Below are positions 12,690 through 36,262 of a stretch of DNA of 64,000 nt, one piece after another; position 1 is the stretch's first letter, and each line of letters opens with the position of its first letter. The stretch comes from a virus (lineage: Duplodnaviria > Heunggongvirae > Uroviricota > Caudoviricetes). The position numbers and the translations under genes are program-made. The notes under the pieces were generated by a model that searched no databases, was not told where the DNA came from, and saw nothing but the letters and a program-made list of their open reading frames with translations. The DNA is taken from the IMG/VR virus record IMGVR_UViG_3300029641_000003. One strand, given 5' to 3'.

Positions 12690-13558
12690 TCGATCACTCC
12701 GTTTTGAGTGGTATCAAAGTTCCTGGCCGGGATGCAGTAATAAAGGGAGCCGACGTGTTGTGTTCCGTAGCTGAAGATTCGGTGCACGTACCACCAGCGG
12801 CGGGCGAGGCCATTCGCCATTTCTTCGTTCCATTCCAGGATTGAACCAACAGGTACGTTGTTTGCAGCAATACGCAGGATTAGCACTTCATCAGCAAGAC
12901 CATCCTGTTCTCCATCGGCATCAATGGCATGAAACGAATCCCTTCCGTCCGGGTTGTCCAGGACGTATACGATTTCCGGTTCCAGATAGGTAAGCTCACG
13001 CTGGTTGTTGTCCAGTTGCGTGAAAGACTCTTCACCTGTTTCATCGTTTACGACGCCATAGGTGCCATCAGCCGGGCGATATAAAAGCGCCTCGAATGCG
13101 TCAGGGCTTGATTCAATAATGAGCATCCAATCGGCGCGGATCTGGTCGTTGAACGCTTTGTGTCCGTTATATCGGGTTTTAAGCTTCTGGTTTGGTTCTC
13201 TGTTAGCGAGCGATGCCGGTAGGGGGGCGATGTCAGGTTCAATCACTTCCGTAACAGAGTCACCAGCATTATCAGGCCAATTATCATGGCGGCTATCAGC
13301 TTCGGTGGCCGCGTGTTCTTCCAGAATACTGAATGGCCCTGTACTGACCTTCCCATTTTCCGTTGTGCTTCCTTCATTCGCTTCAACCGTCGTTGTCTCT
13401 TCTCTCTGCGTGCTGTCATGTTCTGTTCCCTTTCTCATCAGGCTTGCATCATCAGCAAACCATTCATCAAAACGGCCCATAAGCGTCCTCAAAGGTCGAT
13501 TTATCAGGTATCGAGGGGCATTGTCAGGAGATTGTGATTTCAATTCATATCCCAGCAT
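12686..13558 (-). CDS. acidic baseplate/tail protein (by context)
   Basis: 290-aa Asp/Glu-rich ORF, first of the coupled cluster. Confidence 0.4.
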   Translation of the reverse strand: MLGYELKSQSPDNAPRYLINRPLRTLMGRFDEWFADDASLMRKGTEHDSTQREETTTVEANEGSTTENGKVSTGPFSILEEHAATEADSRHDNWPDNAGDSVTEVIEPDIAPLPASLANREPNQKLKTRYNGHKAFNDQIRADWMLIIESSPDAFEALLYRPADGTYGVVNDETGEESFTQLDNNQRELTYLEPEIVYVLDNPDGRDSFHAIDADGEQDGLADEVLILRIAANNVPVGSILEWNEEMANGLARRWWYVHRIFSYGTQHVGSLYYCIPARNFDTTQNGVIE

Positions 13559-13624
13559 GGGACTAAAGTGCTTTACATTGTCCCATATTGGGACTACTAT
13601 ACTTTCAGAGAGAAGGAATCTGTG

Positions 13625-13927
13625 ATGAAAATAATTTCGGTAAAAACACTAAGGGATTTCTGGGCGAAGAATCCCGATGCAGAACAGCCATTAAAGGCAT
13701 GGGTTGATGAAGCAACAAAGGCTGACTGGAAAAATCCGGCTGAGATCAAAGAACAGTACCGGACAGCCAGCATCCTTAAAAACAGGCGCGTGGTGTTCAA
13801 TATTAAGGGAAATGATTACAGGTTAATTGTCGCAATTGCTTATCAGCGAGGATGGATGTTCGTTAAGTTTATTGGAACACATAAGGAATACGATGCCATT
13901 GACGCGGATACAATAGAACTGGAGTAA
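13625..13927 (+). CDS. higB: HigB-like mRNA interferase toxin (RelE/ParE superfamily)
   Basis: Start MKIISVK after AAGGAA; KGNDYRLIVAIAYQRGWMFVKFIGTHKEYD resembles HigB; followed by HTH antitoxin. Confidence 0.7.
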   Translation: MKIISVKTLRDFWAKNPDAEQPLKAWVDEATKADWKNPAEIKEQYRTASILKNRRVVFNIKGNDYRLIVAIAYQRGWMFVKFIGTHKEYDAIDADTIELE

Positions 13928-13930
13928 ATC

Positions 13931-14290
13931 ATGAACATTAAACCTATCCGTACAGAACAAGATTATGAGGCCGCACTGCGTGCGGTCGAACCGATGTTCG
14001 ATAACGAACCGGAAATGAACACCCCGGAAGGTGATTTCTTTGAGGTCATGTGTCTTCTCATTGAGGAGTACGAGAAAAAACATTACCCAATTGAGCCACC
14101 ATCACCTATTGAGGCCATTAAATTCCGTATGGAACAGCAAGGGCTGACCGTGAAGGATCTGGAACCGGCGATTGGTAAGTCAAATCGTGTTTACGAAGTG
14201 CTAAATGGAACACGAAATTTAACGTTACCTATGATTCGTCGTTTACATTCCCAGTTTGGCATTCCTCTTGAAAGCCTGGTTGGTGTATGA
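13931..14290 (+). CDS. higA: HigA-like antitoxin (XRE-family HTH)
   Basis: 119 aa directly after toxin; C-terminal HTH LTVKDLEPAIGKSNRVYEVLNGTRNLTLPMIRRL. Confidence 0.7.
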   Translation: MNIKPIRTEQDYEAALRAVEPMFDNEPEMNTPEGDFFEVMCLLIEEYEKKHYPIEPPSPIEAIKFRMEQQGLTVKDLEPAIGKSNRVYEVLNGTRNLTLPMIRRLHSQFGIPLESLVGV

Positions 14291-14324
14291 GTTCGGCGGT
14301 CTGTATGACCGCCTTTGTTGTCAA

Positions 14325-15521
14325 TCAAGAACCTTTCTTCACGTACTCCATAAACATTTTTTCAGCTTGCCCAGGTGACGTTCCTGCCATGACCAGCGCA
14401 TCAATGAACGCCTGCTTCTTCAGTGCGAACTGATCGGCAAGGCGTTGCTGAAGCTCCTTGTTTTTCTGTTTCTCACGTTGCAAGGCTGCTTCTTTTGCTG
14501 CTGCCCGTTTTTTCTGTGCATCGGACAACTTTCTGGCCCTGGTCAGCTGGTCACGTAGCTTGTCAATCTTGCCGTTGTCCTTTGCCAGTTTTGTGCTTAA
14601 AGCGGCCTGGCGTTTCTGATAGAGCTTCCATTCACGTTTAGCTGCCTCAACATTCGTTTTGCTGCTACGGTTTCGATTGAACGCCTTCTCGTCTTCTTTT
14701 GTGAAGTGTTTTGTCGTGCGGCGGCGATCGTCACCAAAGGCAACTTGCGTTGCAGCTTTTTGCAGGGCGCGAGCAATACTCATCTGCCAACTGGCAGACT
14801 GTAGTCGTGTCATTGAGTGGATCACATGTTTACAGGCGACGCCTTGCAGCTTAGGGTTGCGAACTTTTGGATAGGCGTATTCTTTTGGCGGGGCCAGGGC
14901 AAAGTTACCCGCAGTGGCGATGTAGCGATACCAGTATTGATGGCGACCGCAGTCACAGTCGAAAGACACTCGCCCGGCACACAGTGATTTTGTGACTTTC
15001 AGGGCTGATTTGTCGTCTTCTGCGATGTCATCGACCATCTGATCCCATTCTTCAAAACGTACCCGGACAATGTGGTGCTGGTGAACGGATATATCGGACG
15101 CTTCCACGCGGATATTAATCACATTGTGACGAAGAGATACGGGCGTAGCTCTTTTGATACCAGAACCGTCGTCTACGGCGTTATTTGCTCGCTTAATATC
15201 GATAGCCTGGCTGGACGCTACCAGTTGTGCGTATGTAATGCCAGCCGTCTTGCTGTCATATTTTTCGCGTGCTTTGCTTCGCAGCTTTTCGAAGCCTTTC
15301 AGATCGTCACGCGTAAAGAACGTGCCACCTTTCTTTTTCCCCAGCTTAAGAATGTCTTCGGCTGATTTATTCCTAAGCCTGCCCGGCGTGAGTGTCCTGT
15401 GCGCCTGGCGGCGTTTGCGGTTTTGCTCTTTCCTGATGAGTTCAAATACGCGTGTGAAATCCTTAGAGGACAGACCGTCAGTGATATATCGCCCGTCCTG
15501 ATTTTTCAGGAAGTCAGGCAT
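14325..15521 (-). CDS. SWIM zinc-finger protein with Lys/Ala/Gln-rich coiled-coil C-terminus
   Basis: CDCGRHQ...(38 aa)...CKHV fits SWIM CxCxnCxH; C-terminal 120 aa predicted coiled coil; overlaps upstream gene by 8 nt. Confidence 0.5.
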   Translation of the reverse strand: MPDFLKNQDGRYITDGLSSKDFTRVFELIRKEQNRKRRQAHRTLTPGRLRNKSAEDILKLGKKKGGTFFTRDDLKGFEKLRSKAREKYDSKTAGITYAQLVASSQAIDIKRANNAVDDGSGIKRATPVSLRHNVINIRVEASDISVHQHHIVRVRFEEWDQMVDDIAEDDKSALKVTKSLCAGRVSFDCDCGRHQYWYRYIATAGNFALAPPKEYAYPKVRNPKLQGVACKHVIHSMTRLQSASWQMSIARALQKAATQVAFGDDRRRTTKHFTKEDEKAFNRNRSSKTNVEAAKREWKLYQKRQAALSTKLAKDNGKIDKLRDQLTRARKLSDAQKKRAAAKEAALQREKQKNKELQQRLADQFALKKQAFIDALVMAGTSPGQAEKMFMEYVKKGS

Positions 15522-15843
15522 TTTCTATCTCCGGTGCCGAGCCAGCGTAATCGCGAATCTTGTTTCTTAGCCATGCTGCGTCAGGAAGAGTTAACGTTGT
15601 CCCTACCGGCATTTCTTCCATTTCTGACTCATGGCCCACCAGCACGCGAAATACCCAGCGCAAATCAGCGTTGCCATAGGCGCGATAGGCCGCCAGGTCT
15701 GAGCGATAAACCTCATCAATTTTTATCGTGTACTGGAAATTATCGGAGTGATACTCCGATACCCGCTTGATCATCTCCTGATGGAATAGTGCGCGTAGCA
15801 CATCGTCTTCAATGCATCGATCGTCGAGTCTGCTGTAACTCAT
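15514..15843 (-). CDS. hypothetical protein (109 aa), first gene of the SWIM operon
   Basis: ATG ORF coupled to 14325-15521. Confidence 0.4.
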   Translation of the reverse strand: MSYSRLDDRCIEDDVLRALFHQEMIKRVSEYHSDNFQYTIKIDEVYRSDLAAYRAYGNADLRWVFRVLVGHESEMEEMPVGTTLTLPDAAWLRNKIRDYAGSAPEIENA

Positions 15844-15892
15844 AACAGTTCCTCACAGTCATAACCTGGGGGGAACTGTATGCAGGGTGTGA

Positions 15893-15930
15893 AATGCGAG
15901 AAAGCAGCGTCACCTTGCCTGGTGACGCTG
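15893..15930 (-). terminator. intrinsic terminator after toxin-antitoxin triple cassette
   Basis: CAGCGTCACC-TTGCCT-GGTGACGCTG hairpin followed on minus strand by CTTTCTC. Confidence 0.4.
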
Positions 15931-15935
15931 TGAAA

Positions 15936-16217
15936 TTATGCGTGTGAAAATAATGGACGGATGTTTGGGCGAGCGGTTTGCGAAGCAACCCAAAGCTCAT
16001 ACTGGGATTGCATACCGGTCCACATTTCGGCACTGGTTCCAAGAGCGGACTCCAGACGAAGTGCCATATCAGCGGAAATACCTGTTTTTTCGTTCAAAAT
16101 TCGGGAAAGTGCCGTGCGAGTAATGGCTAATGCAGCGGCGGTGTCTGTGACTGATATGTCTCCCAAATATTCACGAAGAACCGCGCCTGGATGCGGGGGA
16201 TTATGCATACGACTCAT
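15936..16217 (-). CDS. HigA/VapI-like HTH antidote protein
   Basis: [18 protein letters not shown]...[19 protein letters not shown] typical of HigA antidote proteins. Confidence 0.65.
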
Positions 16218-16513
16218 ATGTGGAAAGCAACCCGTTTACCGGTTGGCAATTCAACGTCCAGACTCAACTTTCCACCCATAGCCTCAACGTAACGTTTAAG
16301 CGTTGCTACTTTCAAGTCATTGCCTCGTTGTTCTAGTTTTGTGATGGCTGGTTGACTAATTCCCATCGCATCGGCAACTGTTTTTTGTGATAACTGAAGC
16401 TCCTCTCTCAACATCTGCAATCCGACTTCCAGAATCATTTCATCAGCCTGCTCTTTGATACGAGCTTGGCTTTCAGGGGATTGCGCAGCAATAACTTCTC
16501 TTAGAGTTCTCAT
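16214..16513 (-). CDS. XRE-family HTH antitoxin
   Basis: [22 protein letters not shown] helix-turn-helix; overlaps toxin stop by 1 nt and next gene by 4 nt. Confidence 0.6.
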
Positions 16514-16860
16514 TATTTTTTCTCAAGTTCTGCAAGATGGTTGGAAAATTCGTCGTCTGCAATCCGTATCATTCTTTCGTAGAACTTTTTATCGTTACTT
16601 TTATCTCCGGCGCACAGGATTATGGCTTGCCTTACCGGATCAAATGCGAAGAATGCTCTGATAGGGCGACCAGCGTACTGAATCCGTAACTCCTTCATGT
16701 TTTTATGGCGTGAGCCTTTAACTGTGTCGGCATATGGCCTTGATAATGAAGGGCCATATGTTTCCAGATTGATCAGGTCAACCAGGATTTTTTCTTTTAA
16801 TGCAGGTTCCTGTTCCTGGAACCATTCATCAAAAATTTTTCCAAAATAAATTTGCCACAT
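16513..16860 (-). CDS. RelE/ParE-superfamily toxin (phage Gp49-like)
   Basis: 115 aa; KELRIQYAGRPIRAFFAFDPVRQAIILCAGDKSNDKKFYE resembles Gp49/RelE toxins. Confidence 0.65.
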   Translation of the reverse strand: MWQIYFGKIFDEWFQEQEPALKEKILVDLINLETYGPSLSRPYADTVKGSRHKNMKELRIQYAGRPIRAFFAFDPVRQAIILCAGDKSNDKKFYERMIRIADDEFSNHLAELEKK

Positions 16861-16897
16861 AGTTATTCAAAATCCTTTTTAATAAACTACATGTTAT

Positions 16898-16930
16898 AAA
16901 CTACAGGTTATAGCATATAACCTGTAGTTT
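16898..16930. promoter_or_regulatory. 15-bp perfect inverted repeat (candidate toxin-antitoxin operator)
   Basis: AAACTACAGGTTATA-GCA-TATAACCTGTAGTTT located 38 bp upstream of toxin start. Confidence 0.5.
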
Positions 16931-16965
16931 ATATTTTCAAGACCGTTTTTTATTCGATTTAGCAT

Positions 16966-17619
16966 TTAAAGTATCACGGTATCCTCATCAACTTCTGTCC
17001 CTGCCAGTGACTTTGGCTGGGAGGCGGCTGCTTTAACCTTCTCATGCCCAATAATGGACAGGAACGAGGCCATTATCCCTGCTTTGTTTTCTTTCTCTAC
17101 CGCTCCTGTCATTTGTTTCAGGTAATCCGCGCTGGCAACATTGTGGTATACCGTTGCATAGCAGCACAGAATCATCAGGATGTGCTCTGGTCGGATATCT
17201 TGCCAGTTAACTCGATAAACCTCTTCACCGTTGCCGTTGTATTCGGTATCGACGATAGAGTCGGGGATCTCGAATGCCCCTTTGTTCTTGTCAGGCAGGG
17301 ATAGCAGTCTTTGTAGTTTCAGCTCTCGGTATCTCTCCATGCCGACAATGATCGCCGCTCTGCCGTCGGCGTGCCGTGTTTTTAATGTTACCTGGCTGGC
17401 ACCTGTACCGGCTGAAATGGTTGGCGTGATTTCGTCAACCAGCACCTTAAATTCGCTTTTACGCAGCTCGGCAATTGCTGGTGGAATTTTTCGTTTTTGT
17501 TCAATAGCAGATGCTGGGAGGGGCTTTACTTTGTCAATTACAAGCGCACCGTCTTTCAGGACTGCCGTAGCCATCAGCGGCTTGTTAGTCGAAAGGCTGA
17601 ATATTGCGATCTTTTGCAT
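16966..17619 (-). CDS. hypothetical protein (217 aa)
   Basis: ATG ORF with strong intrinsic terminator just upstream of its start. Confidence 0.45.
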   Translation of the reverse strand: MQKIAIFSLSTNKPLMATAVLKDGALVIDKVKPLPASAIEQKRKIPPAIAELRKSEFKVLVDEITPTISAGTGASQVTLKTRHADGRAAIIVGMERYRELKLQRLLSLPDKNKGAFEIPDSIVDTEYNGNGEEVYRVNWQDIRPEHILMILCCYATVYHNVASADYLKQMTGAVEKENKAGIMASFLSIIGHEKVKAAASQPKSLAGTEVDEDTVIL

Positions 17620-34335: not shown

Positions 34336-34820
34336 TGCTTTTTAGCTCTCCGGGTAAATGTATAAATCCGGCGTTTGATATGCGGAGCGGTCGGAACGGA
34401 GACGCAGGTATTCTCGATAACACCTTGTTCCTCCAGCGATCGCACAGCACGCAAGAACTGTGATGCATCACCACCGCCAGACAGCCAGAATTTGCGGGCA
34501 TAGACGCTGCCATTACGGATAATTTCTGCGATCACCCGCGCTTGCGTCTGGCTTTCTCGATAGCCAAAGAGTTCTCTTGCCTCTCCTTGTGGGATAGCCA
34601 ACTGATAGCCTTTCCCGCTACGGTGACGAACAAAACCGTGAGCAATGAGGTTCTTCAGCTCATTTCTGGTGCGGATACACCCGTACTCAGGGAACTGTAT
34701 GTTGATATCACCAGGCTTATGCCATTCATCAGGACTATCAGCCAGGAGGGACAGAAGTTTCCCTGACAGCTCAGGATTAGTGGTTGGATAACAGTTCAGG
34801 GATGGGTAGTAAGTTTTCAT
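34332..34820 (-). CDS. hypothetical protein (162 aa)
   Basis: Coupled ORF in operon downstream of cre. Confidence 0.4.
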   Translation of the reverse strand: MKTYYPSLNCYPTTNPELSGKLLSLLADSPDEWHKPGDINIQFPEYGCIRTRNELKNLIAHGFVRHRSGKGYQLAIPQGEARELFGYRESQTQARVIAEIIRNGSVYARKFWLSGGGDASQFLRAVRSLEEQGVIENTCVSVPTAPHIKRRIYTFTRRAKKQ

Positions 34821-35161
34821 TTGCGCCCCCTTGCCGGATAGCGCCCGGCATTCGCATCAGGGGCAATGAAGCCGCTGGTGGGGCGAGTGAAAACATGGTT
34901 AATTTTCTCGGTCATAGCGCGATAATTTTCCTGATAGTGGGCCAGGAGTTTTTCAGCAGCAATGACGGTTACTTTCCGGACGTAGCGTTCAGCTTCCTCC
35001 AGATTTCGCCAGTTTTTTTCGAGGGTAAATACGGGAACGGCATCAAGTCCGGTCATAACACCGAACACCACGACCGCCTGGTCGCGCTTAACGCCCGCAG
35101 TGAAGGTTATGGTGTAACCGTCAACAGTGAAGCGTTTTGATTCCGTAATACGATTGTGCAA
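34817..35161 (-). CDS. hypothetical protein (114 aa)
   Basis: First gene of operon, behind operator half-site at 35219. Confidence 0.4.
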   Translation of the reverse strand: MHNRITESKRFTVDGYTITFTAGVKRDQAVVVFGVMTGLDAVPVFTLEKNWRNLEEAERYVRKVTVIAAEKLLAHYQENYRAMTEKINHVFTRPTSGFIAPDANAGRYPARGRK

Positions 35162-35218
35162 AGTACCCTCCGCAATAGGCGAGGGTACTTTACATTAAAA
35201 TGCACTGTCTAAAAAGAT

Positions 35219-35229
35219 TGTTAGAAAAT
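35219..35229. promoter_or_regulatory. operator half-site TGTTAGAAAAT
   Basis: Exact core motif between cre stop and start of downstream operon. Confidence 0.4.
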
Positions 35230-35233
35230 TAAT

Positions 35234-36262
35234 TTATGAATCCATCAGGCGACTATTTGCACCAACGGATGCCCCGCTACGGCGCAAATATCGCATAAGT
35301 GTTTCGGGCTTTTTCCATGTGCCTTCCTGCATGATCTCGACCATTGACACCTGTTTCTCAGCCATATCAATTGCCGCACCAACACGCGCACTATGGCCTG
35401 TCCACGTCCGGTATCTTCCTTTGTTCGGCGTGGCATCTCGTTTGTTCAGCAACCCCCAGGCATCGCTGAATATTTTCTCCATTGCAGGTGCAGTAAGGGG
35501 CGTTGTCGTGATTCTGGCCTTATTACTGCGGTGTATTGGCGGGAATAGCACCGCGTCCGGATGTTCTCGAAGTCCGGACACCTCCAGCCAGTCGTTCAGT
35601 ACGGCGGTAGTGTAACGAGAAAGCACCTTATCAAGTCCGGCGGCGGTCGTGATGGTCTTCGTGTGTGAAATATGCAGCGTTACAGTGTCACCTGTTTGGT
35701 CCAGATCTCCGACGCGGATGCGCGAGATTTCTGACATACGCATCAGGGTATTGTATGCCACGAAGAGAAACGCCCGATTGCGCAGGTCCACCAGCCGCTC
35801 GGAACGGGACAGCAACACGTCGAGCAATTTCAGATCATCCCACCGCAACGGTATAGCCTGGCCTGTTCGCTCGCCTTTTTCCGTTGCCGCTTCGCGCCGG
35901 ATGCGCCGCATGGCCAGAGACACACTTTTATCGTCCGACAGCGGCGGGAGGCCACATTGCGAAAGCAGCATGTTAAGCATGGCATAGTGCTTATCAATGG
36001 TGGTCGAAGCCAGATCGGCCTCATGCAACTGGAGAAGATACTCGCGGGCCATTTCCGGCGTAATCGGGAACCAGGGGCGCTGGCGCGAGTTACACCACCG
36101 CGCCCAGGAATGAAACACCAGACGGAGATCACGAAGTGTATTTGGGGCATAAGCTCCCTGGTCGTTCATGAACTGCATAAAGTTTTTTGCAGCTTCCTGG
36201 TATTCGGTGCCAATATCGCGCAGAAAACCACCAGAACCGCCGGAGATAACTAGTTCACCCAT
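35234..36262 (-). CDS. cre: Cre-like tyrosine site-specific recombinase
   Basis: 342 aa; aligns by eye with recalled P1 Cre along the length (WFPITPE, NTLMRMSEISRIRVGDL, HSARVGAAIDMA, MQEGTWKKPETLMRYLR) at roughly 40 percent identity. Confidence 0.85.
   Translation of the reverse strand: MGELVISGGSGGFLRDIGTEYQEAAKNFMQFMNDQGAYAPNTLRDLRLVFHSWARWCNSRQRPWFPITPEMAREYLLQLHEADLASTTIDKHYAMLNMLLSQCGLPPLSDDKSVSLAMRRIRREAATEKGERTGQAIPLRWDDLKLLDVLLSRSERLVDLRNRAFLFVAYNTLMRMSEISRIRVGDLDQTGDTVTLHISHTKTITTAAGLDKVLSRYTTAVLNDWLEVSGLREHPDAVLFPPIHRSNKARITTTPLTAPAMEKIFSDAWGLLNKRDATPNKGRYRTWTGHSARVGAAIDMAEKQVSMVEIMQEGTWKKPETLMRYLRRSGASVGANSRLMDS

Follow-up and report, generated by a model that had tools for sequence, protein, structure and literature searches.

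In the window, i.e., the whole stretch of 64,000 nucleotides of the IMG/VR virus record IMGVR_UViG_3300029641_000003 (Caudoviricetes) that was analyzed, the listing of open reading frames (ORFs) contains a cassette of three minus-strand genes of the toxin–antitoxin (TA) type. These are, in order, the gene of a Gp49-domain (HigB2-type) toxin with predicted RelE fold (16513–16860, 115 amino acids), that of the XRE-type helix-turn-helix (HTH) antitoxin presumed to be cognate to it (16214–16513, 99 amino acids, full length, HTH at residues 32–83) and that of a HigA-family antitoxin retained without its HigB (15936–16217, 93 amino acids). The stop codon of the toxin shares 1 nt with the start codon of the XRE gene (TAATG), and between the end of the latter and the beginning of higA there is an overlap of 4 nt (ATGA); both overlaps had been claimed in a sequence-only reading of this DNA and are found as claimed, and the families proposed there (a Gp49/RelE-like toxin, an XRE antitoxin and a second HTH protein of the HigA/VapI type) are borne out by Pfam and NCBIfam matches. 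The window itself represents a D6-like (P1-related) phage-plasmid and the cassette lies between its baseplate gene 26 and mat. Each of the three genes is a routine member of its family, already named singly by annotation pipelines, and it is their arrangement that is unusual but, as discussed below, explicable.

Three states of the mat/gene 26 site

The key to this arrangement is provided by the related phage-plasmids. The window has 54 of its 64 kb in common, at 95–98% identity, with the E. coli plasmid pEC361_3, which bears a higBA pair; among what they share are the genes for partition (parMR) and the region of the c1 repressor, and collinearity is broken at two places alone, namely 13540–14335 and 16221–16966. 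The site between mat and gene 26 is found in three different states. In phage D6, in pMUB-MIN14-1 and in the closest backbone (NZ_CP104667.1) it is empty and consists of an intergenic region of ~330 bp; in pEC361_3, in pAPEC201603 and in an E. fergusonii plasmid it contains a gene for a HigB of 93 amino acids (PF05015) followed, after 8 nt, by that of a HigA of 93 amino acids; the third state is the three-gene cassette of the window. The HigB of pEC361_3 has the accession WP_032323275.1. The siblings that could be typed all belong to rep_cluster_1704.

The junctions of the cassette become apparent when three siblings bearing higBA are aligned with the window. An identity of 88–96% extends across the P1 gene 26-like baseplate wedge gene (15514–15843, minus strand; PHROG 1269 at 1e-35, and so annotated in D6), the hairpin located downstream of the cassette and the whole higA, and stops 1 nt upstream of the higA ATG, so that the left recombination junction is placed at 16218/16219 (the whole-plasmid blast alignment breaks at 16221). 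Homology restarts at the stop codon of the P1 mat-like gene (16966–17619, minus strand; a maturation control protein according to the annotation of the siblings and of phage D6), the right junction being located directly after this codon at 16965/16966 and blast homology being recovered from 16966. What the siblings have in the place of the divergent stretch is their ~335-bp intergenic region, the higBA promoter and higB. Since the homology gap spans the distance from the higA start to the mat stop, the promoter and higB are read as having been replaced by a self-contained Gp49–XRE module. The traces of this exchange extend to the single codon: the TGA that terminates the XRE gene comes from the ATGAGT at the beginning of higA, whereas the native XRE homologues end with CAC ATC TAA or AAC ATT TAG.

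The product of the third gene scores 94.6 bits, against a cut-off of 47.7, with the antidote_HigA equivalog of NCBIfam (TIGR02607), and its sequence matches, with E values from 1e-12 to 1e-8, those of PDB entries for HigA of P. aeruginosa, E. coli CFT073 and P. vulgaris and for GraA of P. putida. Furthermore, the gene occupies the same position as the higA of the higBA siblings, with the 88–96% identity at the DNA level mentioned above. The third gene thus encodes a HigA, yet there is no PF05015 HigB in the 64 kb of the window (tblastn, E ≥ 0.06) and the locus does not qualify as a HigBA module; the same search led us to reject a pairing of HigA with a HigB encoded elsewhere in the window. The HigA allele that is common among the cassettes (246 contigs) is 100% identical as a protein to the HigB-paired HigA of pEC361_3, their genes differing by two synonymous changes, and by its sequence HigA is assigned to this other (HigB) system and not to the Gp49–XRE pair. 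Taken as a whole, a composite origin of the cassette from two type II TA systems, with HigA standing outside the Gp49–XRE circuit, is in our opinion very likely.

Compared to the canonical HigB–HigA modules (PF05015 with TIGR02607, as in Rts1/P. vulgaris, in P. aeruginosa and in the sibling plasmids), the cassette thus has as its third gene a true member of the HigA family which, as in sibling higBA, is found at the same site and is followed by the same hairpin, whereas the toxin, the promoter, the operator and the ribosome-binding site of the canonical module are gone.

The Gp49–XRE module and its control region

The toxin matches the Pfam family Gp49 (PF05973) with an E value of 1.3e-21 and 76.9 bits (cut-off 23.9) over profile positions 1–89 of 90, and matches PHROG 3445, described as "toxin", at 6e-30. 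Searches of the PDB at the sequence level, made with the single sequence and with a profile of 37 sequences, yielded nothing useful. On the other hand, an AlphaFold2 model of the protein (predicted local distance difference test score, pLDDT, of 92.1) has as its top Foldseek matches the S. pneumoniae HigB (6af3/6af4, template modeling scores of 0.73–0.78), followed by HigB2 of V. cholerae (5jaa) and by RelE (2khe, 1wmi and 4fxe), so that the model points to a RelE-like α/β fold. The toxin retains 18 of the 18 invariant columns of the 37-sequence alignment; an activity consisting of mRNA cleavage, and its relief by the cognate antitoxin, are presumed. A separate similarity links the toxin to the C-terminal part (positions 191–291 of 294) of the PADLOC defence protein NsnC (E 4e-8) and indicates that this multidomain defence toxin contains a putative Gp49/RelE-like domain.

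The XRE protein matches HTH_3 at 2e-9 and PHROG 2339 at 6e-30, shows, over its whole length, 89% and 71% identity to the antitoxins that belong to the two-gene modules in L004 and L005, respectively, and gives weak sequence matches with the structures of M. tuberculosis HigA3/HigA2 and with S. pneumoniae HigA. Although its stop codon is borrowed from higA, the protein is complete, its C-terminus being AFHI where the homologues end with AFNI or IFHI. The two genes form a toxin-first bicistron, with the XRE-HTH gene directly downstream of that of the toxin.

These properties fit the GP49-domain HigB/HigA modules, such as HigBA2 of the A. baumannii plasmid pAB120, HigBA2/HigBA3 of M. tuberculosis, HigBA of S. 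pneumoniae (6af3/6af4) and HigBA2 of V. cholerae (5jaa), a group in which the operons are toxin-first, the antitoxin acts as repressor and the toxin as co-repressor (PMC5906591). With these modules the pair of the window shares a PF05973 toxin with RelE fold, the toxin-first operon and an antitoxin that has its XRE HTH at the C-terminus, behind an N-terminal extension; by analogy, it would also share an autoregulated promoter overlapped by operators. Unlike them, it has a toxin with no more than 14–20% sequence identity to those of known structure and a foreign antitoxin gene added as third cistron.

That the Gp49–XRE pair is a unit by itself is suggested by its distribution. At 70–75% DNA identity it occurs in 927 PLSDB plasmid records, in which the annotation gives a toxin of the RelE/ParE family and an HTH protein, and the neighbors on either side are unrelated. 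In a comparison of 80 species-representative loci, ranging from Pantoea and Yersinia to Planctomycetota and Acidobacteriota, the XRE gene directly follows that of the toxin in 64, whereas a HigA-like gene follows the XRE gene in none. Judged from these homologues, the imported Gp49–XRE module is ordinary and self-sufficient. In one of the 80 loci (L093, 856–2041, from an acidobacterial metagenome-assembled genome) a HigA-like ORF, with no HigB alongside, precedes the Gp49–XRE pair by ~170 nt; this is the sole HigA near such a pair in the whole set and the gene order is unlike that of the window.

The module is preceded by a promoter-like site that overlaps a palindrome. The promoter scan (9/12 match, 17-nt spacer) identified on the minus strand a putative −35 box TTGAAA at 16935–16940 and a −10 box TATGCT at 16912–16917. 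The perfect inverted repeat predicted upstream of the operon by the sequence-only reading does exist, but its arms are longer than the 15 nt assigned to them: a repeat search showed that they measure 18 nt each (16895–16912 and 16916–16933) and are separated by a 3-nt spacer, which together with the ends of the two arms makes up the −10 box. The upstream arm, candidate operator site A (16916–16933; TATAAACTACAGGTTATA on the coding strand), occupies the interval between the two promoter boxes and is repeated perfectly, in inverted orientation, as candidate site B (16895–16912), which covers the −10 end and the likely transcription start; an imperfect third site (16881–16898; TATAACATGTAGTTTATT on the coding strand), picked up by the repeat search both as a direct and as an inverted repeat, overlaps site B by 4 nt.

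In the whole window there are two instances of the pattern TATAA-N8-TTATA, one in each arm of the palindrome, as against the 0.06 expected from shuffled sequences. Homologues ranging from Pantoea to Haemophilus share such sites: of their 32 upstream regions, 25 contain one exact TATAR-N8-YTATA site or more, and 13 of these contain two; in the homologous cassettes, as in the window, the first site directly follows the −35 box, a TTGAAA or TTGACG being found at an equal position relative to it. Because the pattern is confined in the window to the two arms and because the homologues carry such sites, the "39-bp palindrome" is best described as two adjacent 18-bp operator sites that by chance are exact reverse complements of each other, and by the same comparison it is attributed to the Gp49–XRE module. 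Repeated predicted sites that overlap the promoter and are conserved among homologous modules are the hallmark of an autoregulated type II TA operator, in keeping with the operator function originally proposed for the repeat. The central base of the palindrome spacer (16913) is polymorphic, the −10 box being TATGCT in the window and TATGAT, which is nearer to the consensus, in 9 of 12 other copies of the cassette. The promoter of the higBA siblings contains a different palindrome (TGTGTATACACA), which, read by eye, represents a candidate higBA operator; a search of the 64-kb window found no match to it above chance level.

At the opposite end, the cassette is followed by a hairpin that resembles a terminator and goes back to the resident higBA module (15905–15930, minus strand), with a perfect, G+C-rich 10-bp stem that is invariant among the higBA siblings and a loop that is variable. 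Its strength (−20.2 kcal/mol, z of −4.4 with respect to shuffled sequences) agrees with the terminator that had been postulated at this place, but the U-tract is weak (CUUUCUCGCAUUUC) and the hairpin, falling below the criterion of the terminator scan, was not called by it. As to other RNA elements, an Rfam scan of 15400–17400 returned just a match of the palindrome to a miRNA at chance level (E 0.79), and the presence of an RNA element at the cassette was rejected.

Spread of the cassette and a second locus with the same footprint

Contigs named E. coli or Escherichia encode the identical toxin in 251 cases and the identical XRE protein in 266. In 13 of the 13 copies examined (from ten assemblies, one IMG/VR contig, one metagenome contig and the window) the junction is the same and the three ORFs are intact, and the copies reside on backbones that differ at the neighboring TA locus in at least three variants. 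Since all copies have one junction, the cassette, as deduced from these sequences, arose once and then persisted. The Gp49–XRE part has no megablast match in 5,426 complete E. coli genomes and the chimera is present in no PLSDB plasmid and in no INPHARED phage, its occurrence being restricted to draft assemblies; scans of IMG/VR and of JGI metagenomes with the junction sequence added two more loci with alleles already known. Among the cassette copies the variable sites are 9 in the 282 nt of higA, 1 in the 348 nt of the toxin gene and 4 in the 300 nt of the XRE gene; the higA haplotypes amount to three alleles in 13 copies, too few for an argument based on dN/dS.

A second TA locus, ~2 kb away from the cassette, bears the same kind of footprint. 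In the window it contains a canonical pair (13625–14290, plus strand) consisting of a PF09907 HigB toxin (13625–13927) and an HTH antitoxin of 119 amino acids (13931–14290). In phage D6 (orf70–72), pAPEC201603, NZ_CP104667.1 and L007 the PF09907 toxin is replaced by a PF05015 toxin with a HigA of 112 amino acids, whereas the 119-residue antitoxin is retained in the D6-type plasmids with 98–100% protein identity, the break being located once more at the start of the antitoxin. The stretches compared were L097 75–1202, L002 1–648, L098 407–1535, L007 8574–9699 and L009 10146–11272. In PLSDB this locus is matched by 115 records, 21 of which have the full pair, while a second group has the whole antitoxin gene. 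Overall, this hotspot (window 13540–14335) has at least three alternative contents; in pEC361_3 (34811–35685), L013 and L015 it harbors, instead of TA genes, a gene for a YjaZ-like "stationary phase growth adaptation protein".

Next to this hotspot lies the gene of a P1 gene 25-like tail protein of 398 amino acids (14325–15521, minus strand) with a CxC...CxH motif (FDCDCGRHQ...ACKHVIH) that recalls a SWIM zinc finger; the protein matches no Pfam family at E < 0.01.

Probable composite origin of the cassette and possible role of HigA

The data summarized above suggest the following course of events. At the variable mat/gene 26 site a complete imported module would have replaced the promoter and the higB of a resident higB–higA pair, bringing along its own σ70 promoter, two to three 18-bp TATAR-N8-YTATA sites, the Gp49 toxin and the XRE antitoxin. 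The splice is exact, extending from just after the mat stop to one base before the higA ATG, and through it higA has become the third cistron, overlaps the XRE stop and has the old higBA hairpin behind it. The XRE antitoxin may bind the operator sites, either by itself or together with the toxin, and thereby autoregulate the operon, as its relatives do, and would neutralize the Gp49 toxin, presumably a ribosome-dependent mRNA endonuclease like other members of its family, so that the pair would constitute an active addiction or defence module, for whose toxin HigA would not be a second antidote. A reason why it is the antitoxin and never the toxin that is left over can also be envisaged: in a cell containing HigB protein or sibling copies of higBA a recombinant without higB should be viable while one without higA should not, and thus a recombinant that loses higB would survive only if higA is kept. 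Today HigA would be translated by coupling to XRE translation and would either confer immunity to the HigB of the sibling plasmids, i.e., be an anti-addiction gene, or be drifting to its loss.

Of these two outcomes, a present role of HigA as immunity against the HigB of the siblings is a tentative proposal to which we give somewhat less than an even chance. The evidence for anti-addiction is indirect, consisting of the identity of HigA to the HigB-paired HigA and of the backbone, parMR and c1 that the window shares with the siblings. There are precedents, insofar as chromosomal TA homologues neutralize plasmid toxins and orphan antitoxins have been described in Klebsiella (PMC7167474, PMC7192599, PMC12548467), while compatible antitoxins are reported to be over-represented on plasmids whose targets are TA-bearing plasmids (PMC12945316). 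As in these anti-addiction modules, in the cassette an antitoxin is kept without its toxin and could cancel the post-segregational killing by a related element, and the genotype is the toxin-minus, antitoxin-plus one of the model of Rankin et al. (PMC3415908). Unlike in these cases, the orphan HigA is located on the competing mobile element itself, within the operon of a different, presumably active TA module, and its function is predicted. The wider view, that the layout is the footprint of a TA arms race between incompatible sibling phage-plasmids in which the old antitoxin was kept as an operon-encoded immunity gene, appears rather doubtful to us.

Several circumstances weigh against this interpretation, in part or as a whole. 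The incompatibility with the higBA siblings is deduced from the shared backbone, parMR and c1 region, the RepB replicon being located outside the window, and likewise the specificity of neutralization, the expression of HigA and the binding to the operator are deduced from sequence. No donor of the Gp49–XRE cassette emerged, and the closest toxin from outside the cluster has 83% identity. The HigA allele of the window is a rare one, present in 3 contigs (JGI/IMG, Logan and ENA), and differs from the common allele by A8P, M21I, A26T and G31A, the first and last of which are absent from the other alleles retrieved. The Shine–Dalgarno sequence GAGGAA that precedes higA in the siblings has no counterpart in the chimera and, since the chimera offers no ribosome-binding site, HigA would be made solely by coupling, its translation probably depending on the ATGA overlap with the XRE gene. 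Finally, the antitoxin gene left at the second locus carries a frameshift in L009, and many PLSDB plasmids keep no more of it than the first ~190 nt, unannotated; this decay argues that the retention of an antitoxin need not be selected in the long term.

The decay at the other locus and the scarce, modified allele of the window would be expected if HigA were a neutral remnant, for which the origin would be composite too but the leftover protein would have no role, would be translated poorly or not at all and would be bound to decay. The loss of the Shine–Dalgarno sequence and the fate of the second-locus antitoxin both speak in its favor, as do the four amino-acid changes of the rare allele of the window, accompanied by four synonymous ones, and the fact that the window contains neither HigB nor a candidate HigA operator. 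Yet higA is intact in all the 13 copies, whose backbones have the second locus in three or more variants, its common allele encodes a protein identical to the HigB-paired HigA, and the exact ATGA junction is predicted to keep the gene translatable. The sample is small and this rival stays strong, its chances being, in our estimate, on a par with those of the immunity role and likewise not quite even. A use of HigA in counter-defence, by disarming the HigB of new hosts should this cause abortive infection, or its co-option as regulator of other genes, is improbable. In its favor, HigB and HigA of the same 90% clusters are encoded also on ~220-kb plasmids and on a 4.9-Mb contig of E. coli, and phage orphan antitoxins that neutralize host TA defence have been documented, namely T4 Dmd and DarG-like enzymes (PMC12548467; 10.1101/2024.07.11.602962); however, an action of this HigBA in phage defence has no support, HigA would be made from a TA promoter of the prophage state and not from an early lytic one, and the sites resembling the HigA operator are in the window at chance level.

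The least probable of all, and by a wide distance from being convincing, is a true tripartite system in which HigA would be a functional second antitoxin or a dedicated regulator, as PaaR is in PaaR–PaaA–ParE. The overlapping stop and start codons, the single promoter and hairpin and the stability of the arrangement in ~250 contigs are what such a system would display, and three small genes in one operon with two potential DNA binders or antidotes are found also in HipBST, in the toxin–antitoxin–chaperone (TAC) systems and in ω–ε–ζ. In the three-component systems, however, the additional component accompanies the pair from one homologue to the next and its role is defined (PMC7167474, PMC10627512, PMC5105189), whereas the third gene of the window is absent from all the 80 homologous loci and derives from another TA system, being orthologous, down to an identical protein, to the partner of the PF05015 HigB at the same site of the siblings. 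Furthermore, the two-gene module has conserved operator sites of its own, and the single junction of all copies denotes one origin. Thus, of the two possibilities left open by the sequence-only reading, a tripartite module or a fused remnant of two systems, the latter is retained while the sibling site, the identity of HigA and the survey of homologous loci speak against the former.

The composite origin from two TA systems therefore remains the preferred reading, and it entails a caution, namely that adjacent antitoxin-like genes are not to be read as tripartite systems. The cassette offers a natural example of how the turnover of TA cassettes on a plasmid leaves orphan antitoxins behind, with siblings available in all states: empty, higBA and chimera. 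Should the more demanding view of an arms race prove true, a plasmid of this type could displace the higBA siblings, or survive their loss, and at the same time impose an addiction of a new kind; D6-like elements would then have passed at least twice, at two loci, through the toxin-minus, antitoxin-plus stage of the rock-paper-scissors cycle that has been predicted, the later decay of the immunity gene being visible as well. If HigA does protect against the HigB of the siblings, these natural, near-isogenic phage-plasmids would allow a direct test of the theory of anti-addiction and plasmid competition.

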